In this document: positions 7,240 to 20,179 of the stretch, piece after piece
How positions within the stretch are numbered: position 1 is the first letter of the stretch
Layout of the letters: every line of letters starts with the position of its first letter
Source: Vulcanimicrobiota bacterium
GTDB taxonomy: Bacteria > Vulcanimicrobiota > Vulcanimicrobiia > Vulcanimicrobiales > Vulcanimicrobiaceae
Reading direction: 5' to 3'
DNA: 64,000 nt
NCBI GenBank assembly: GCA_963777315.1
Contig: CAVZQC010000005.1
Coordinates: 178,600-242,599 of the forward strand
The notes under the pieces: generated by a model
Database searches by the model: none
Seen by the model: the letters and a program-made list of their open reading frames with translations, nothing else
What the model was told of the DNA's origin: nothing
Program-made: the position numbers and the translations under genes

Positions 7240-7964
7240 CCGCGACTACGGGATATACGCAAACCTCTGCGGCCGCGCGCGCGCTGCACGGGACGTTCAT
7301 CGTCACCGGAGCTGCGTCGGGGCTCGGATTGGCCATCGCACAGGCGATTGGAGCCGCGGGCGCAAGCGCCGTCGGCTTTGACGTCAACGCGCCTTCGGGC
7401 GATTTCGAGCACGAGATCGTCGACGTTTCCGACACGTCGATAGTGGAAGCGAAAGTTCGCGAAGTTGCGCGGCGACACGGTGGGCTTAGCGGTGTGGTTG
7501 CGAACGCAGGCATCGACGCGTGCGGGCGTTTCCAGGACGTGTCCGCCGGCGCGTGGGAGCGCGTGATCAAAGTCAACTTGATGGGCACTGCGGCAGTCGT
7601 GCGCGCCGCATTGCCGCATCTGATCGAAAGTCACGGGCGCGTCGTCACGGTAGCATCCACTTTGGGCCTGCGCGCGGTGAGCGACGCGACCGCGTACTGC
7701 GCGAGCAAATTCGGTGTGGTTGGATTCACCCGAGCCCTCGCAACCGAACTGGCGGGTCAAGTCGGGGTGACGCTGCTGATTCCCGGCGGCATGCACACGC
7801 ATTTCTTCGATGACCGCGACGAAAAATACAAGCCCGGTGCGGACGCCCGGCTCAATCGCCCGGAAGACGTAGCGCAAGCAGCGGTTTTCGCACTTGCCCA
7901 GCCGCCGGGCTGCGAAGTGCGCGAGATGCTGATCTGTCCGTCGATGGAGACGTCCTGGCCTTAA
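7236..7964 (+). CDS. SDR oxidoreductase
   Basis: TGAASGLG, NAG, YCASK. Confidence 0.88.
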   Translation: MTATTGYTQTSAAARALHGTFIVTGAASGLGLAIAQAIGAAGASAVGFDVNAPSGDFEHEIVDVSDTSIVEAKVREVARRHGGLSGVVANAGIDACGRFQDVSAGAWERVIKVNLMGTAAVVRAALPHLIESHGRVVTVASTLGLRAVSDATAYCASKFGVVGFTRALATELAGQVGVTLLIPGGMHTHFFDDRDEKYKPGADARLNRPEDVAQAAVFALAQPPGCEVREMLICPSMETSWP

Positions 7965-8015
7965 GCGTTCCCGGACTTTCGCTCCAAAACAACGCATTTT
8001 CAGCCCTATATACCC

Positions 8016-8044
8016 TTGACGGAATATGCCTTATGGGGGATAAT
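8016..8044 (+). promoter_or_regulatory. Sigma70-type promoter of the TA operon
   Basis: TTGACG (8016-8021), 17-bp spacer, GATAAT (8039-8044), ending 5 nt before the GTG at 8050. Confidence 0.65.
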
Positions 8045-8049
8045 ACGTT

Positions 8050-8412
8050 GTGGCATGGGAAGTCGAATTTACGGACGAGTTCAAGGAGTGGTGGGACGAT
8101 ATCGATGGCGGCGCTCAAGCAGACATCGATGCATGCGTTCGGCTCCTAGCGGAGGTGGGACCGGCGTTAGGACGGCCTCACGTCGATACTGTAAGCGGCT
8201 CGGCCCACGCCAACATGAAGGAGCTCAGAGTCCAGAGCAATGCGCGGCCGTTTCGGATATTTTTTGCCTTCGATCCACGCAGAACTGGCATTTTATTAAT
8301 CGGCGGCGACAAGACTGGCAAAAAGCGATTCTACGAAGAGATGATTTTAATCGCTGACCATCTCTACGATGAGCACCTTGAAGAAATTGGAGACGAAGGC
8401 GCAAATGAGTAA
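8050..8412 (+). CDS. RelE/ParE (HigB/Gp49-like) toxin
   Basis: GPALGRPHVDT, MKELR, RIFFAFDPRR, LLIGGDK; toxin-first gene order. Confidence 0.88.
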   Translation: MAWEVEFTDEFKEWWDDIDGGAQADIDACVRLLAEVGPALGRPHVDTVSGSAHANMKELRVQSNARPFRIFFAFDPRRTGILLIGGDKTGKKRFYEEMILIADHLYDEHLEEIGDEGANE

Positions 8413-8746
8413 GAGTTACTCAGTACTCCACGAGAAATTGACGCCGGAACAGCGTAAACGCAGTGACGCGCGACTTGAGCACTTGCGTAATCAAGTCCGG
8501 CTTCAGGAACTACGCGTTGCGCGGGCGCAGACGCAGGAAACGATCGCCGGTGTCATGCGCATTCCTCAGTCGTCTGTTTCTAAAATTGAACAGCGCACCG
8601 ACGTCTATGTCAGCACGATTCGCCGTTACCTTGAAGCGGTTGGCGGCAAACTTCAAATTATCGCGCAGTTTCCGGACGGAGAGACCTTTGAGATTACGCA
8701 GTTCCATGAGATTGGCGAACCTGAACAGGAACTCGTGGACGCGTAA
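8405..8746 (+). CDS. XRE-family HTH antitoxin (HigA-like)
   Basis: LQELR...TQETIA...QSSVSKIEQRTDVYVSTIRRYLEAVGG; overlaps the toxin stop. Confidence 0.88.
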   Translation: MSKSYSVLHEKLTPEQRKRSDARLEHLRNQVRLQELRVARAQTQETIAGVMRIPQSSVSKIEQRTDVYVSTIRRYLEAVGGKLQIIAQFPDGETFEITQFHEIGEPEQELVDA

Positions 8747-8788
8747 ATCCTTCAGTGGGATTTTACTAAGATCTTCGGCTTGGAAACA

Positions 8789-8816
8789 TGGTGGCCCCAG
8801 CGCGGATTCGAGCCCC
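8789..8816 (-). other. tRNA 3'-end fragment (att-like scar)
   Basis: Minus strand reads ...TCGAATCCGCGCTGGGGCCACCA (T-loop, acceptor 3' strand, CCA); no 5' half present. Confidence 0.55.
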
Positions 8817-8822
8817 GAAGCC

Positions 8823-10718
8823 CTACCGCGGCCGCACGATAACGATCGCAACGCGCGACTCGTCGGCCCACGCGGCCGCTGCAACCAGCGGACTGGTCAG
8901 GTACGCAAAGGCCTGTGCGATCTCGGCGCGCGAGCAGCCCGCGTGCGTGCCGTTGGCGGCCAGTTTCGCGTCGACGAGCGCGATCGCCACGTCTGCGGTA
9001 ATCGACGCCGCATCCGACCGCGCATTTCCTTGCGCAGCCGTGAGTTGCATCTGCCATCCCTCGCTTCGCAGATAGCTGCAGATAATCGTTAAGCGCTTCA
9101 CGCTGCCGTGTTGGCGTGCCCACAGCAATTCGCCAACGCGATCCGCTGCCAAGCCCGGCGCAAGCATGTCGCGCAGTTCGACGGCGGTAGCGCCGGCGCC
9201 GAGCAGTTGCTGGAGATCCCGGACGGTCCACGCGCTCACGCCGTGTTGTTGTAGTTCCGACGTGAATTCCAGTTCGCCGGGAAAGTCCGGGCCGACGATC
9301 GTGCAATACTGCGCGCCGTACGCATCGCGATACTTGCTGGCTTCAAAGCAGTCCGGCTGCGTGACTTGAGAGCGCGCGGTTTTGCACTCGAGCATGACGC
9401 GGTACTGCAGCGGGCCCAGCACCGCGTCTGCGTAGCCGTCCGGAGCATCGTTTCCGCCCAAGTGCGTCGCGCGAAAGCCCAGCATCGTAAACGCATCGCA
9501 AACCGCGCGTTCGAACGCAGCGGGATCGTCGCCGTGTGAGGTTTGGCTCAGCCGCGCGCACAGCTCTTCAGCGCCAGGAGCGGGCGGCGGCTGCGGCACC
9601 GCAATCGCCGGCCACGGATCCGGCGGCTCGTTGATGCGAAACCGGCGATCGTCGTCCTGCACGATCAGGGGTTTGCGCTTGCGCCCTTCGGTGCGAGCGA
9701 TGTATTCGATCAGCGCGGTATAGACGTATTTGCGGCTCGTGTGCGGCGGCAGCGTTCCATTTTTGATGGCTTCGGCTAAAATTTCGTCCGCCGACCGCGG
9801 GTGCCCGTCGCTCAGAATGGCCAGCACCGCGTTTAACACGTGACCGCGTTCCGGCGCACTCGAGGGCGTCGTCATCACCGGGTACACGCGCTGGTCGACG
9901 CGTGAGAAGCGTTGATCGTCGATGATGCGTACTTGCGCGCCGAAGACTTCGCCGGCGGTATGAAATCTTTCGGCAAAGCCAGCCGCGCCGATGCTTCCGG
10001 CCCGGACTTTTCCCACCTCGTCCCATTGCAGCGGGGCGCACACGCTCAGCCGCGCATCTCCACGCAAGGTGTACGGCAGCGCGCTAAAGCGTCGCGGCGC
10101 ATTGGAACCGACGTGAACGTGCACGCGATCGTCGTTTCGCACGTTCGGATCGGTAGTAAGCAACGATGGTGCGCGCCGTACGGCTTCATCGGCGATTTCG
10201 TGCAGCCACGCCCGCACGGGCGCGTATTCCGGTGCATCGCAGAACGGCAGCCACAGGCCCATTCCCCGCGCGCCGGCCAGGACCGGAATGGAACGAACCT
10301 CGCGCTCAACAAGGACCTGGTGTATCGCGCGCGCTGCATCGTCCAACATGGGCGCGGCGGCCGTGGCATCCAACTCCAACAGAATGCGCGCGAACCGCAG
10401 GCGAAGCGGGTCGTTCGCCGTGGGCGTCCAGCTGTGAAATTCGACGGCGGAATCGCGGTGGCAGAGCCACAGCAGCGCGTTGGCGCTCAGTCCGACGTAG
10501 CAATCGCGCACGCCGCCGACGTCGACCTGCACCGATGCAATGGTTTTCGGCAGAGGCTTCGAAGTGGGGCCGTGCCATTGAGGCGTTGCGCTAAAGCCGT
10601 GGGGAAAACTGACCGCAACGACGGGAATCGCTCCGAAGAGGCGCTCGAGGAGCGGCGCCACGAGATCGTAGTGCGCCAGGACGGGAACCGTCGATGGTTC
10701 GTGCTGCAAGACATCCAT
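8823..10718 (-). CDS. Fusion: degenerate LigD-Pol/PrimPol domain + winged-HTH (HARE-like) + PD-(D/E)xK (Mrr-like) nuclease
   Basis: N-terminus aligns by eye with the PrimPol at 13707-14678 (HYDLVAP, PYTLR...VCAPLQWDEV); C-terminus has FERAVCDAFTMLGF...PDG...LECK. Confidence 0.7.
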   Translation of the reverse strand: MDVLQHEPSTVPVLAHYDLVAPLLERLFGAIPVVAVSFPHGFSATPQWHGPTSKPLPKTIASVQVDVGGVRDCYVGLSANALLWLCHRDSAVEFHSWTPTANDPLRLRFARILLELDATAAAPMLDDAARAIHQVLVEREVRSIPVLAGARGMGLWLPFCDAPEYAPVRAWLHEIADEAVRRAPSLLTTDPNVRNDDRVHVHVGSNAPRRFSALPYTLRGDARLSVCAPLQWDEVGKVRAGSIGAAGFAERFHTAGEVFGAQVRIIDDQRFSRVDQRVYPVMTTPSSAPERGHVLNAVLAILSDGHPRSADEILAEAIKNGTLPPHTSRKYVYTALIEYIARTEGRKRKPLIVQDDDRRFRINEPPDPWPAIAVPQPPPAPGAEELCARLSQTSHGDDPAAFERAVCDAFTMLGFRATHLGGNDAPDGYADAVLGPLQYRVMLECKTARSQVTQPDCFEASKYRDAYGAQYCTIVGPDFPGELEFTSELQQHGVSAWTVRDLQQLLGAGATAVELRDMLAPGLAADRVGELLWARQHGSVKRLTIICSYLRSEGWQMQLTAAQGNARSDAASITADVAIALVDAKLAANGTHAGCSRAEIAQAFAYLTSPLVAAAAWADESRVAIVIVRPR

Positions 10719-10808
10719 ATCAGGCGCCTACTTGGCTGCCGGTTGTCTGCTTACCTGCCTGCTCCGTCGAGTTCCTGGCGCCCCGTCCCATGCGGGTACA
10801 GAGTCTGC

Positions 10809-11849
10809 GTGAACCTGGGAATCGGTTTGGACTTTCCCCCGATGGAAGCGCAGACGGCCAAGTCGCTGCCGCATGAGCCCAACTACCAATTCGAGCCCAA
10901 ATGGGATGGGTTTCGCGCGTTGTGCTTCAGGGACGGCGACGACGTGGCCCTGCAATCGAAATCCGGCCAGTCGTTGGCGCGCTACTTTCCCGAACTGGTG
11001 GCGGCGACAAAAGCGCTCAAGTGCGAGCGCTTCGTCATCGACGGCGAGATCGTCGTGCCGGTCGAGGATCGCTTGGACTTCGATCAGTTGCTGCAGCGCA
11101 TCCACCCTGCCGCCAGCCGCGTCTCGATGTTGTCGGCTCGATACCCCGCAACGTATGTCGTTTTCGATATCCTCGTCGACGAGCGCGCAAAACCGTTGTA
11201 TCAGTTACGGTTGAACGAACGTCGCTCCGCTCTGGACGACTTCGCGCACAAATTTCTGCAAGATCAGCCGAGGTTCAAGTTGTCTCCGGTAACCGCAGAC
11301 CGCCGAGTCGCCGAACGGTGGTATTCGTCCGTCGGCGGAGCTTTAGACGGCGTTATCGCCAAGCGTACGGACATTGCGTACTCTTCCGGCGACCGCCGCG
11401 GGATGCTCAAGATAAAGCGGCTGCGAACTGCCGATTGCGTGGTGGGCGGTTTTCGCCTGGCAAACGACGGAGCCTCGCTCGGCTCGTTGCTGCTGGGTCT
11501 CTACGACGGCGACGGCGCGCTCGACTACGTCGGTTTCACATCCGGCTTTTCCGCCGCGGAGAAGAAGTCGCTATTGAAAAAGCTGAACGATCTCAAGACC
11601 GACGTCTCGTTCACGGCGCGCACGCCCGGCGGTCCGAGCCGGTGGAACCGCGGCAAAGAAACGGCGTGGGTTCCGGTCAAACCTTCGATCGTTTTGGAGG
11701 TCGAGTTCGATCACGTCAGCGGCGGACGTTTTCGCCACGGAACGCGGCCGCTGCGCTTCCGTCCCGATAAATCCCCAAAGCAGTGCACGATGGAACAGCT
11801 GAATCAGCCGATCGGCACATCGCCGTTTTCGCTCGCCGCCGCGGACTAA
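10809..11849 (+). CDS. ligC: ATP-dependent DNA ligase, LigC-like
   Basis: EPKWDGFR, IDGEIV, FDIL, DGVIAK, LKIK, RFRH...RFRPDK; GTG start at 10809. Confidence 0.88.
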   Translation: MNLGIGLDFPPMEAQTAKSLPHEPNYQFEPKWDGFRALCFRDGDDVALQSKSGQSLARYFPELVAATKALKCERFVIDGEIVVPVEDRLDFDQLLQRIHPAASRVSMLSARYPATYVVFDILVDERAKPLYQLRLNERRSALDDFAHKFLQDQPRFKLSPVTADRRVAERWYSSVGGALDGVIAKRTDIAYSSGDRRGMLKIKRLRTADCVVGGFRLANDGASLGSLLLGLYDGDGALDYVGFTSGFSAAEKKSLLKKLNDLKTDVSFTARTPGGPSRWNRGKETAWVPVKPSIVLEVEFDHVSGGRFRHGTRPLRFRPDKSPKQCTMEQLNQPIGTSPFSLAAAD

Positions 11850-11964: not shown

Positions 11965-13524
11965 TTATGGCGCTGCGAAAGTTAGATCGCTTGCATAGCC
12001 GCTGGCAAAGTTGCCGCTCGTGAAGACCTGATTACCATCTGTGTCGTAGACTTGTATAATGCCCTGACCCGAAACGTACAGATGCGAATTGCTCGGATCG
12101 AACGCGACCCATCTCGGGAAATGAAGGTTGGCGAACGATCCGCTCGTCGTAATTGCGTTACCGTTCCGATCGTAGACCAAGAGCGTGGGAGGACTAAAGT
12201 TGTAGATCGCTGCGTACACCCGGCCCTTGAGATCGAACGCGGTGTCTACGGCACCGGTGCTGTTTGGGAAGGATCCGGCCGTGGTGATTTGGTTGCCATT
12301 CTCATCATAAGCCCTGATCGGTTGATCGAATTCTAAGTACAAACGGCGCGTAGTCGGATCAAACGAAATGCCGGCTGATACTCCCTGATCTGCGAATGAA
12401 CCCGGCGACGGGAGTTGTTCGCCGTTCTGATCATAGACTGTGATGAAATCGCTGTTTGAAATATAATTCGAAATGTACAATCGGCCCTTGCTGGAGTCAA
12501 CGGCAAGGTCCTGAGAGAATTCGGTGTTTGGAAACGATCCGGTGGTCGAGACTTGATTGCCGTTCTGATCGTAAACCGCAATCGAGTTGGTCCTGGTCGC
12601 CCCATTGCTGTTCAGCACATACAGGTGACCGTTGAGCGAGTCGAAATCAATGGCGTACGGTTCAATGAGATCCAAGAACGGCCCAGTCGTCACAATTCTG
12701 TTGCCGTTCTCATCGTAGACCATTATCGTGTCACTTGTGGTGTTGGTCACGTAGAGCGCCGGGGTCGGTGCGAGCAGCGCTTGCCCGGTGCAGCCGCAGC
12801 TGTGGAGAGTCGCCGTCACGATGCCTGGCGCGTTGGGTTCGGCCATAGCAATGGGCAGGAAGCTGAAGACGTTACCGCCCAACGGCGTTATTTTTACGAC
12901 GTTCGAGGTGAGCGTTATCGAGGACGCGTTGTCCGGGCTGACGATCGCGTTGCCGTCGGCATCCTCCGGAGTCACGGCGAATTTTTCCGCCTGCGGGCCG
13001 ACGAGCTCGTAAACGTTTTTGTTTGCCTGCGTAATGGGAATCACGAACGGCTGAGAGCCGCTCGGCGCCAGCACAATTTTCGTGCACAAGCCCTCGAGTA
13101 AGGCGGTGATCGCGTTGCTTTGCCCGGCAATGATTCGCCGTCCGACCGTTACCCATGCAAGAAGCTTGCCGGCGCCGTTTGGTTGATCCCAAGCCTCGAT
13201 CAGGAACGAGTCGGTACCGGGCGGGGCGTCGATAGTGATGGTTGTCGTTGCCGCCGCCGCCCGGGACGGTGGCGCATTCGCAACGACGGTAGGCTTCGTT
13301 GCATTGTTGACCGTAATGGAAACGCTCCGCGTCGAGGCCGAGACGGAGCCGACTCCCGTTGGCGCCCCCCAATGCATGGTGAACGTAGCACTCGTCGTAC
13401 CGGGACGCTCACCGCCACTGCTCGCCGGCGGAGGAATCAAGGGCGAGCCGGTACTCCCATGTGAGCACGCCACCAACAGCGCAATTACAAGTGCCCCAAA
13501 GATGGCCCGAAAATTTGTTGCCAC
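11965..13524 (-). CDS. Lipoprotein with Ig-like N-terminus and a 6-repeat (NHL-like) beta-propeller
   Basis: LLVAC lipobox; six copies of (V/A)YDx(N/D)G(N/E)xxxxxGxF. Confidence 0.75.
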   Translation of the reverse strand: MATNFRAIFGALVIALLVACSHGSTGSPLIPPPASSGGERPGTTSATFTMHWGAPTGVGSVSASTRSVSITVNNATKPTVVANAPPSRAAAATTTITIDAPPGTDSFLIEAWDQPNGAGKLLAWVTVGRRIIAGQSNAITALLEGLCTKIVLAPSGSQPFVIPITQANKNVYELVGPQAEKFAVTPEDADGNAIVSPDNASSITLTSNVVKITPLGGNVFSFLPIAMAEPNAPGIVTATLHSCGCTGQALLAPTPALYVTNTTSDTIMVYDENGNRIVTTGPFLDLIEPYAIDFDSLNGHLYVLNSNGATRTNSIAVYDQNGNQVSTTGSFPNTEFSQDLAVDSSKGRLYISNYISNSDFITVYDQNGEQLPSPGSFADQGVSAGISFDPTTRRLYLEFDQPIRAYDENGNQITTAGSFPNSTGAVDTAFDLKGRVYAAIYNFSPPTLLVYDRNGNAITTSGSFANLHFPRWVAFDPSNSHLYVSGQGIIQVYDTDGNQVFTSGNFASGYASDLTFAAP

Positions 13525-13706: not shown

Positions 13707-14678
13707 CTAGCGCGATTCAACACCGTCCAGCAATTCTTGCAAGTCATAGCGTCCGCGCTCTACGGTCAGCGGCTTCCACAAATCGCCCAGCTTGCCGATT
13801 CGGTCGGGAACGTTGAGCATCGTGAAGTCCTCCGTTTCGATACCGCGTTCGACTTCTTCCCACGTTACCGGGGTCGACACGCTGGCGGCAGGCGTCGGAC
13901 GCGCGGAGTAGATCGATGCGAGCGTTGCGCCGAGCCTGTTTTGGTTGTAATCGAGCAGCACGTGATTCCGCGGACGTTTTTGCACCTTGTATTCCGCAGT
14001 CAGAATGTCGGGATGCGCCTTGGCCAGTTCGAACGAAATACGCTTTGCCAGCGCCCAAACGTCGTGCTGGCGAGGCCCGTGTGCGATCGCTACGTACAAA
14101 TGCATGCCGTGGCCGCCCGAAGTCTTGGCGTAAACCTTCATGCCCAGCGCGCGGAGCGCATCGTTGACGATGAGCGCGGATTCGCGCACCGCCGAGAACG
14201 GTGCACCGAACGGATCGAGATCGAAATGCAGATACTCCGGCCGATCCGAGGTCGCGCAGCGCGCGTACCACGGGTTGAGATCGATGCAGCCCAGGTTGAT
14301 CACCCACAACAGCGAGGCCAGGTCTTGCACCATCGGAAAATCGATGACGTTGCCCGAACCGTGTTCGATCGAGCACGTCTCTATCCAATCGGGCCGCGTC
14401 GACGGAGCGCGCTTCATGAAGAAGAAGTCGCCCGCGATGCCGTTGGGATAGCGTTTCATCACCATCGCTTTATGGCGCACGTGCGGCACCAGCACCGGCG
14501 CGACGCGAGCGTAATAGGTGAGAAGATCGCGTTTGGTCAGCCCGAGCTGCGGCCAAAATACTTTGTTGAGGTTGGTCAGGCTCAAGCGCTTGCCGTCGAC
14601 CTCGACCGTAGCGCTGTCCCCTTGTGGCGGTATCGGGGTCGTGCGGATGCTCATGTCTTTGCGTACGTTCCCGCTCAT
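13707..14678 (-). CDS. Stand-alone LigD polymerase domain (Prim-PolC-like)
   Basis: LTNLNKVFWP, RYPNG, HFDLDP, KTSGGHGMH, LDYNQN, VSTPVTWEE. Confidence 0.9.
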   Translation of the reverse strand: MSGNVRKDMSIRTTPIPPQGDSATVEVDGKRLSLTNLNKVFWPQLGLTKRDLLTYYARVAPVLVPHVRHKAMVMKRYPNGIAGDFFFMKRAPSTRPDWIETCSIEHGSGNVIDFPMVQDLASLLWVINLGCIDLNPWYARCATSDRPEYLHFDLDPFGAPFSAVRESALIVNDALRALGMKVYAKTSGGHGMHLYVAIAHGPRQHDVWALAKRISFELAKAHPDILTAEYKVQKRPRNHVLLDYNQNRLGATLASIYSARPTPAASVSTPVTWEEVERGIETEDFTMLNVPDRIGKLGDLWKPLTVERGRYDLQELLDGVESR

Positions 14679-19328: not shown

Positions 19329-19492
19329 TGAAAGATGAGTACTTCCAAAATAATCAGCAGCAGACCGAACAAGCTTGAAATGCGTCTGCACTAGATTCTC
19401 GAATCGGAATAAACGTGAAAACGCAAAACACGCGTGCGAACACGCACGCGCCTTTCGCTTCCATTTCGAGACGCGCGTCGAATAAGTCGCGC

Positions 19493-20179
19493 ATGGACGA
19501 AAACATCGCGCGACGACGCAACGCGGCAATAGCGACAACGGAAGTGATCGAGAATGCTATGAAGATGCTGCTGAACGACCGGCAGACGTTCTCGCGGTTT
19601 CGCGACGCGGTAAGCTCTGCGGTCGCCGTGCGCCAAACGCATTTTCCCGGCGCGGTCGCACGCTGGTACTCGCAGAGCGTGCTGCTCGGACTTCGTCGGC
19701 TAGGAGATTCCGATCACAGGACGCACTCGATGCGCAGATTGTTCGATGCGATGGTGGCGCACCCCGACGAGTGGTCGCTGCGATCTGTGATGGAAATTTG
19801 GGATTCGACGGGACACGGCTACGACCGTGAGATGTTCGAATTCTTGGCGCGGTCAACGTACGGGCCGTTCGCCGACGCGTCCGGCAAGCGCCTCAACGTC
19901 GCAAAGGTGTCGCGGGACCGTGACGATCTCGAGGCGGCGCTGTCGGACGTGAAGAGCGTCGTGAACAAAACCGTCGCGCACGCCGAACGGCACGACGGCG
20001 AAGCGCCGACGATGACGTTCAGCCAATTGGATGCGGCGATCGACTTCTGCCACGAACTGGCGAAGCCGTACATCGCCCTGCTGACGGGGCGCGACTACAG
20101 CGATATGACGCCGACCGAGCAAATCGCCTGGTGGCGCATCTTCGAGGATTGGCCAGAGATGGCGGCCTTTCCGACATGA
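19493..20179 (+). CDS. Putative HEPN (AbiU2-like) protein
   Basis: All-helical; LLGLRRLGD...SMRRL and VNKTVAH resemble AbiU2-type HEPN; start uncertain (19415 is an alternative). Confidence 0.5.
   Translation: MDENIARRRNAAIATTEVIENAMKMLLNDRQTFSRFRDAVSSAVAVRQTHFPGAVARWYSQSVLLGLRRLGDSDHRTHSMRRLFDAMVAHPDEWSLRSVMEIWDSTGHGYDREMFEFLARSTYGPFADASGKRLNVAKVSRDRDDLEAALSDVKSVVNKTVAHAERHDGEAPTMTFSQLDAAIDFCHELAKPYIALLTGRDYSDMTPTEQIAWWRIFEDWPEMAAFPT

Follow-up and report, generated by a model that had tools for sequence, protein, structure and literature searches.

What does a polymerase domain that has lost its catalytic residues do in front of an intact nuclease? The question is raised by a gene at positions 8823-10718 of the window, the 64,000-nucleotide stretch of contig CAVZQC010000005.1 from a Vulcanimicrobiota bacterium that was analysed here. 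Its product (P0001) joins an inactive polymerase domain of the LigD type to a FokI-like PD-(D/E)xK nuclease that has a winged helix on either side. The protein belongs to a real family that is widespread in one class, Vulcanimicrobiia, and apparently undescribed. Its function we infer: the chance that it is a horizontally transferred, methyltransferase-less, Type IV-like stand-alone defence nuclease of Vulcanimicrobiia seems to us slightly better than even. The core of this reading is a nuclease with intact catalytic residues that moves as a roughly gene-sized piece into hotspots rich in toxin-antitoxin (TA) genes, usually together with a dead polymerase kept by selection.

An inactive polymerase fused to an intact nuclease

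The reading frame is free of internal stops and its GC content by codon position (0.70/0.50/0.75) is of the real-gene type, with a coding-type third position, which bears out the gene proposed in an earlier note made from the letters alone. Pfam places LigD_Prim-Pol at aa 13-256 of P0001 (E 1e-24) and Mrr_cat at aa 398-475 (22.9 bits, cut-off 21). As the note had it, the N-terminal part aligns with the intact LigD-type polymerase domain (PolDom) encoded at 13707-14678 (aa 13-237, 24% identity, E 2e-10), and the F-E...PD...ExK motifs of an Mrr-like nuclease are present as quoted. An AlphaFold model of P0001 was built on a 118-row alignment (predicted local distance difference test, pLDDT, 93; predicted template modelling score, pTM, 0.62). 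In fold searches, aa ~15-268 of this model matched LigD PolDom/Prim-PolC (PF21686; PDB 6sa0, 5dmu, 2fao, 2iru) with Z 29-31, a root-mean-square deviation of 2.5-3.6 and 259-298 aligned residues, and aa 380-537 matched FokI (Z 15.7), HindIII (Z 14.9) and BspD6I (Z 11.5), so that both the archaeo-eukaryotic primase (AEP) fold and the PD-(D/E)xK fold were recovered. The winged helix-turn-helix (HTH)-like segment of the note is a winged helix at aa 288-363 (Z 8-9), but its HARE-HTH label, which may still apply, was not borne out: PF05066 was matched by 0/87 members at E<=0.1 (Pfam), no HARE-HTH structure was within the top 50 fold matches, and the HARE-HTH clusters that Atlas lists reach no more than 0.83-0.85, which serves as a lead. 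The note had missed a further winged helix, at aa 539-629. Modelled alone, the C-terminal 343 aa (winged helix-nuclease-winged helix) reach a pTM of 0.88 and so probably form one rigid core; the full-length model's lower pTM suggests a loose placement of the polymerase domain on it.

In P0001, the two motif I aspartates fall on L113 and E115 (profile-profile and MAFFT alignments), the motif II His is replaced by G154 and the motif III Asp by H202. HMMER comparison with PDB chains shifts the motif I register by two, and in either register one acid remains. All polymerase motifs quoted in the note, eroded or kept, occur in the sequence, but HFDLDP maps to RILLEL and not to LLELDA. Among 75 polymerase domains from distinct loci, the motif I positions, those of Asp137 and Asp139 in Mycobacterium tuberculosis (Mtb), are L in 59/75 and E in 51/75, with L-x-E in most (profile-profile alignment), and DxD occurs anywhere within aa 111-119 in 2/118 sequences. 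The motif II His (Mtb His178) is found in 0/75 domains (Ala in 65/75), and the motif III Asp (Mtb Asp227) likewise in 0/75 (His in 55/75); the roles of both residues in the active PolDom are described in PMC8656161. The Ser172 position is Asp in 60/75 and the His111 equivalent is His in only 32/75. The N-terminal segment of the 5'-phosphate pocket (Asn13/Lys16/Lys26) is absent from 118/118 sequences and the Arg53 position is Arg in 0/75, and this pocket and Arg53 are required for end and gap binding by PolDom (PMC3898472, PMC8656161). The Phe64 position, on the other hand, is aromatic in 75/75 (W48 in P0001), the Pro55, Asn231 and Arg244 positions are kept as in LigD PolDom, and R111, H200, H202, N206 and R219 are conserved. 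Pooled over 18 close pairs (domain pairs with dS 0.05-1.5), the ratio of nonsynonymous to synonymous substitution rates (dN/dS) is 0.20 for the dead polymerase; the winged helices give 0.14 and 0.19, and the nuclease gives 0.15. Judged by these residues, the polymerase domain is catalytically dead across the whole family, yet under purifying selection: a pseudoenzyme, not debris.

The nuclease has kept its active site. Across 87 cores, E403, D427 and E459 are present in 87/87, E444 in 86/87 and K446 in 85/87; Mrr_cat is matched by 74/87 members at E<=0.1 and the DpnI family by none of the 87 (Pfam). The best PDB matches of the nuclease profile are FokI chains (E 0.0065), with D427 aligned to FokI D450, and the core model again gave FokI as the best fold match (Z 15.6), with HindIII and BspD6I, and a winged-helix fold at Z 8-9; the FokI alignment is limited to FokI 304-579. 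FokI D450A is catalysis-deficient, and the FokI cleavage domain is described as non-specific, sequestered before recognition and dependent on dimerisation (PMC4081073). Outside the active site, R342, N363, D367, W369, W533, H537, K541, R542 and Q558 are nearly invariant in the 87 cores, perhaps as a surface for recognition or control. Fold searches of the full-length and core models turned up neither a transposase nor a recombinase fold.

Partners of the nuclease core

The fusion is one of several arrangements. Among 40 stretches drawn from genome matches (mostly core-only or long frames, some of them duplicating the 79 loci analysed), 9 were fused, 17 encoded the dead polymerase in a frame of its own no more than 3 kb away and 14 had the core alone. 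The separate frame lies upstream, downstream or divergent, and a few cases may be frameshifts; six divergent pairs and one solo core form one well-supported clade in our quick tree, the method behind all tree statements here. In the best 150 representatives, complete cores came with a dead polymerase in 34 cases, solo in 18 and with another N-terminal domain in 3. Five solo-core genomes (G231, G134, G294, G103, G091) have no dead polymerase anywhere: their best PolDom scores are <=126 bits, the level of ordinary PolDoms, against >=280 for family members. The core is intact in G231, G134 and G294, lacks K446 by replacement in G103 and is broken in G091. Four of five further genomes carry a dead polymerase at another locus. 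On this distribution the core is autonomous, with the dead polymerase as its commonest accessory.

These results redraw the idea of the earlier note that an inactive polymerase had been repurposed as a sensor steering a nuclease. An inactive fold kept by selection and linked to an intact nuclease (fused, tandem or divergent) is what we found. Sensing of ends or gaps is weakened for the canonical mode, since the Asn13/Lys16/Lys26 pocket and Arg53 are gone family-wide. Ribonucleotide sensing, the note's third option, might still apply, with His at the His111 equivalent in only 32/75 domains. An obligatory steering role has to be given up: as the domain is dispensable in some genomes, it is an accessory. 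For L095, where core and dead PolDom are naturally split, a complex prediction on 61-row alignments gave no verdict (score 0.00) and was not used.

A protealysin-like M4 protease is a second partner. It is fused to the core in L064, L067, L077, P0124 and P0156, whereas L056 and L106 have it upstream in translational coupling; these fused and coupled forms occupy at least two tree positions. In L071 the protease gene is convergent. The calls are Pfam/NCBIfam matches for L056, L071, P0124 and P0156; L064, L067 and L077 were recognised by eye from the HExxH motif and L106 from a propeptide-like start. No emfourin inhibitor gene is recognisable after the protease, where the next gene is the nuclease family's own. 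Protease, nuclease and pseudopolymerase are possibly a three-part system. In L071 (4127-16873), a broken family member lies inside a CRISPR-Cas region with the M4 protease and HicAB adjoining; by eye, the region holds array-like repeats, cas2, cas4-cas1 and type I-G-like genes.

Further variants were seen. In P0130, P0194 and L090:5899-7293, the dead polymerase is replaced by a very acidic domain of ~125 aa before the core, possibly a DNA mimic or inhibitor. P0153 (L105:5308-8079) and P0164 carry an extra C-terminal domain of ~220-270 aa that has no NCBIfam match; we presume it to be uracil-DNA-glycosylase-like, in which case it could be an add-on glycosylase for modified bases. In L116:3056-6110, two nuclease cores in tandem come after a dead polymerase, and a gene pair resembling an addiction module adjoins; second copies of the dead polymerase gene lie beside the system at L052:9978-10787 and L089:2584-4159. 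In L115, compared with the syntenic L089 and L102, the divergent dead polymerase is absent and the core has a stop codon, a single case.

Distribution and horizontal transfer

Of 8000 candidates scored in a homologue search, 285 proteins were retained. Among the best 120, almost every one spans the full query, at 41-63% identity, and those with a name are labelled Eremiobacterota/Vulcanimicrobiota. The fusion recurs in other genomes of Vulcanimicrobiia. At E<=1e-30, 148/401 genomes of the phylum match, all in class Vulcanimicrobiia, in a tally that includes partial and core-only matches, perhaps a few ordinary PolDoms among the weak ones, and 5 genomes flagged unpublished, on which alone no claim rests. 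By family, and besides the source genome, matches occur in three families of this one class (132/296, 4/5 and 11/30 genomes) and in 0/69 genomes from the other 18 families. Within genera the distribution is patchy (36/80 in the largest genus, 18/33), and a genome may have up to four copies. The record titles of three of the 79 loci (L008, L043, L066) name other phyla, labels given here as deposited. Existing annotation mislabels family members 'DNA primase' or 'LigD', and in Atlas both halves fall in Vulcanimicrobiota clusters named only hypothetical or LigD. Phage records and viral contigs gave no match, and a plasmid search gave one weak match (30% identity over 32% of the query). One DNA sequencing run (word share 0.09) yielded short contigs only, and no RNA run was listed with the gene.

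The clearest evidence of movement is a pair of loci, L021 and L022, that share a 1897-bp segment at 98.3% identity between unrelated flanks; the segment begins 68 bp upstream of the start codon and stops just short of the stop codon. The rpoB regions of the two genomes are 78.5% identical. Neither flank was found in the other genome, and no empty site was found. Sequence comparison marks this as a recent horizontal transfer in which the mobile piece was gene-sized; the assembly could be chimeric, but both contigs are longer than 270 kb. The motif CGGT stands at both ends of the shared piece in this pair only, and the other related pairs compared have no conserved end motif. Models of an integron cassette or of insertion sequence (IS) ends found no support, as no shared terminal motif was seen. 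Copies within one genome are mostly divergent (best 85%, bar one 98% duplication), and in the tree the gene of the window groups with L004 and not with the copy of the same-genus genome G199. A separate feature of L022 is a 530-bp segment (7351-7880) that is repeated at 100% elsewhere in the genome and ends 11 bp before the transferred piece; we take it to be the 3' end of a TnpB gene with an IS605-type right end.

Genomic context

For 91 loci, 300 of the 353 nearest neighbours that had been called were scanned, as were 150 of the 162 genes called in 20 arbitrary control stretches. TA-type Pfam families (hand count) made up 27/300 neighbours and 0/150 control genes (Fisher p 2e-5, which overstates the case because related loci are not independent). 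Cas genes, a Schlafen helicase, a ThiF protein and STAND ATPases were also seen among the neighbours. None of the 300 scanned neighbours was ligC, LigD or Ku, and none was a DNA methyltransferase; a motif scan for methyltransferases over 119 loci, confined to the loci themselves, gave two candidates. The largest shared neighbour cluster covers 10/80 loci.

In the window, the TA module that the earlier note had placed beside the gene was confirmed as a Gp49/RelE-type toxin with an HTH protein (Table 1), and a sigma-70-like promoter lies ahead of the toxin gene at 8016-8044. The same note's att-like (attachment site-like) scar fared less well: a tRNA-Glu-like 27-mer is present, but it has no exact match to the 46 tRNAs called in the genome. 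From its sequence, it is a possible, unproven remnant of an old att site. A model of integration at tRNA genes was rejected, as the fragment lacks an exact cognate and ARAGORN found a tRNA in only 3/79 loci. In G199, the gap between the SDR gene and ligC holds ~590 bp of unrelated DNA, without TA pair or fusion gene. G199's own family copy sits elsewhere and is 64% identical at the DNA level, where the flanks reach 76-81% and the rpoB region 85.7%. On this comparison the adjacency to ligC is incidental, the TA pair and the fusion gene being an insertion absent from this site in G199.

Table 1. Coordinates of the fusion gene, its domains and accompanying features (window positions unless a locus is named)
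Feature	Position	Strand	Remarks
Fusion gene P0001: dead PolDom - winged helix - FokI-like PD-(D/E)xK nuclease - winged helix	8823..10718	minus	631 aa
Inactive LigD/Prim-PolC polymerase domain	9894..10691	minus	aa 10-275; fold match and motif alignment
First winged helix and conserved linker	9603..9854	minus	aa 289-372; R342, N363, D367, W369 nearly invariant
FokI-like PD-(D/E)xK nuclease	9129..9581	minus	aa 380-530; E403, D427, E444, K446, E459
Connecting helix and second winged helix	8826..9128	minus	aa 531-631; W533, H537, K541, R542, Q558 conserved
Inserted interval, TA pair and fusion gene	7965..10775		2.8 kb; comparison with G199
Gp49/RelE-HigB-type toxin	8050..8412	plus	within the same inserted interval
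HTH antitoxin	8405..8746	plus	convergent with the fusion gene
Degenerate tRNA-Glu-like 3' fragment	8789..8815	minus	ends in CCA; just past the stop codon
ligC-type ATP-dependent ligase	10809..11849	plus	host backbone; divergent neighbour here only; start codon inferred
Intact host PolDom	13707..14678	minus	comparator only; DLD, His, Asp motifs kept
M4 protease loci	L056:6961-9890, L106:2525-5505, L064:6867-9901, L067:6870-9898, L077:464-3477, L071:9860-10630

Some features of these regions stand apart from the family. The G199 gap between SDR and ligC (L143, G199:C1:668042-668629) consists of four near-identical tandem repeats of ~100 bp with palindromic cores like those of repetitive extragenic palindromic (REP) elements. 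This repeat family is common in these genomes and scattered over other loci (41 pattern hits in G000), and near the family gene it shows no enrichment (0.57 clusters per 10 kb against 0.52). The window also encodes a 519-aa beta-propeller protein with a lipoprotein-like N-terminus (11965-13524, minus strand), located between ligC and the intact PolDom; the corresponding G199 gap of ~2.9 kb has no DNA match to this gene. An AbiU2-type HEPN protein (19415-20179, plus strand), a candidate defence gene, lies ~9 kb from the fusion gene.

What the nuclease may do

As no protecting methyltransferase accompanies it, the nuclease must spare host DNA, which would mean that it cuts only after recognising foreign DNA. 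The winged helices would recognise such DNA, modified or structurally unusual; two catalytic domains would then meet by dimerisation and cleave, as in Mrr and FokI, and the nuclease would stay silent on host DNA until switched on. Mrr has been proposed to be switched on by recognition and dimerisation (PMC12707154), and stand-alone winged-helix nucleases have been argued to need modified targets (PMC11037411). More tentatively, the dead polymerase could be an optional helper, whose remodelled pocket (the aromatic at the Phe64 position, R111, H200, H202, N206, R219) might bind a flipped base, a nucleotide, a single-stranded junction or a protein partner of PolDom, and so raise the local concentration or widen the range of triggers.

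Several observations weigh against this reading. Transposases are not enriched (6/300 neighbours vs 2/150 controls, p 0.72), many neighbours are housekeeping genes, and TA-rich surroundings mark hotspots for any mobile gene. PADLOC (2023 library) gave no convincing match; the weak matches, on 13 family proteins, were to REase_II and PDC-S02 (E>=0.0015), the best being to REase_II over 48 aa. In the broader set, H200, H202 and E115 are kept in only 65, 55 and 51 of 75 domains. The median net charge per 100 aa is -1.2 in the dead domain against +2.5 in intact PolDoms; as the DNA-end pocket is lost as well, DNA binding by the dead polymerase is uncertain. Of the anti-phage role raised in the earlier note, what stands is a context that points to defence or mobile hotspots.

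An alternative, which we think unlikely, is that the nuclease breaks the DNA of the invader (or, abortively, of the host) while its partners block repair. The dead PolDom, as a built-in decoy or a sensor of a ligand, would mimic LigD and, recruited by Ku of host or phage, deliver the nuclease to DNA ends and prevent re-ligation; in some lineages, the RecA-cleaving protealysin-like protease would shut down homologous repair too. Ku is present in 300/331 genomes of the class, Ku binds the polymerase domain of LigD (PMC13717202), phages exploit the host's non-homologous end joining (NHEJ) (PMC12848934) and RecA is cleaved by protealysin (PMC9505478), so both partners could stop the repair of cuts. 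The recurrent coupling of M4 proteases to the core, and a polymerase fold that is kept while its catalytic and phosphate-pocket residues are lost, fit this alternative. However, full-length fusions occur in Ku-less genomes (G029, G033, G077, G111; 95-98% complete), and 6/20 listed Ku-negative genomes, one of the 20 flagged unpublished, carry the family. The positions equivalent to the Ku contacts D162, V194 and R198 of Mtb are variable across dead domains, although at D162 the intact PolDoms of Vulcanimicrobiia lack an acid too, and conservation is centred on the old active-site cleft, which a pure decoy would not need.

It is decidedly unlikely, in our view, that the gene is a selfish mobile nuclease that cuts DNA and is copied or pasted into the breaks by host end joining, with the dead PolDom aiding synapsis and any defence incidental. 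The gene-sized transfer with CGGT at both ends, the lack of a conserved neighbour and the several copies per genome would suit it. The end motif is not conserved in other related pairs, same-genome copies are mostly divergent, L021 and L022 offered no empty site, no transposase or recombinase fold was found, and the pocket for synapsis is lost.

A host repair factor, whose dead PolDom would find gaps or ends for the nuclease to process on behalf of LigC/LigD, is improbable. The domain is closest to NHEJ and gap-repair polymerases, the gene is divergent from ligC in the window and nearly all carriers have Ku. Repair processing, one option of the earlier note, nevertheless finds no support in the form of joint action with ligC: the adjacency is an insertion site, NHEJ genes make up 0/300 neighbours and the gene occurs in Ku-less genomes. 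The family also occurs in fewer than half of the class genomes though Ku is near-universal, it is transferred horizontally and has broken copies (18/79 loci are not one intact fusion, some probably through sequencing errors), and its gap-binding residues are lost. In genome G000, the host Ku gene adjoins a second intact PolDom on another contig (G000:C2:499218-500648), the genome's Ku-linked NHEJ locus.

Very improbable is an addiction module with the nuclease as a constitutive toxin and the dead PolDom as antitoxin: the two are tightly linked, whether fused, tandem or divergent (dead PolDom within 3 kb in 17/31 non-fused stretches), in a TA-rich context, but intact cores exist in G231, G134 and G294, which lack any dead PolDom. 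A chance fusion with a functionless, decaying polymerase, to which the loss of all catalytic motifs and the solo cores might point, is hardly tenable and already largely refuted by the 285 homologues, which with few exceptions match over the full length in the best 120, by a dN/dS of 0.20 with family-specific conserved residues and by a linkage that survives gene rearrangement.

Relation to known systems

The preferred reading, a stand-alone defence nuclease, places the family closest to EcoKMrr and the winged-helix, modification-dependent Type IV nucleases such as DpnI, which combine a winged helix with Mrr_cat/PD-(D/E)xK in one chain and have no partner methyltransferase (PMC12707154). Unlike these, the fusion family has two winged helices around the nuclease and a pseudo-polymerase or protease partner, and its motif is PD-ExK where that of Mrr is PD-QxK. 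FokI, a Type IIS enzyme, is the closest solved nuclease by profile and fold, has a winged helix right before the cleavage domain and shares the motif HxGG...PDG...(D/E)xK; the fusion family lacks its large N-terminal recognition domain and paired methyltransferase, and has a C-terminal winged helix. The FokI D483 position, which we take to be a dimer contact, is not conserved in the family, and the R487 position is K/R. Type IV membership is assigned from architecture only; in action, the family would most resemble Mrr/DpnI-type orphan nucleases with a FokI-like catalytic domain.

Unlike LigD PolDom, the dead domain has lost the catalytic Asp/His, Ser172/Lys175 and the 5'-phosphate pocket; its fusion partner is a restriction-type nuclease and not a ligase or phosphoesterase, and the domain is unlinked to Ku or ligC. 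The family is neither an active PolDom nor a Type IIS system, and it does not belong to an NHEJ operon. As in DRT7 and PrimPol-RT defence proteins, an AEP domain would have been recruited into an anti-phage protein; those carry an active PrimPol with a reverse transcriptase, whereas here a dead AEP from the LigD clade goes with a nuclease. Some loci recall the protealysin-emfourin operon in their M4 protease with HExxH and propeptide, but the protease is fused or coupled to the nuclease core and the following gene is the family gene, not a recognisable inhibitor. In Creative Commons-licensed PubMed Central articles and bioRxiv preprints, covered by titles and the starts of abstracts, this architecture was not described; it may be listed in large supplements on domain architecture.

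With its compact build, apparent self-restraint and swappable partners, the FokI-like nuclease could serve as a tool. The family makes testable the idea of bacterial immunity through decoys of repair proteins or blocked repair of its own cuts, and if the dead PolDom does act as a LigD decoy, it would represent a new class of defence nucleases, in which components of host repair are used against the invader. In the family as a whole, a LigD-type polymerase has clearly become a pseudoenzyme in nature, one that selection maintains and that four gene arrangements pair with a nuclease. If defensive, the family would be a candidate immune system without a match in PADLOC 2.0, carried by more than 40% of the genomes sampled from a soil class.

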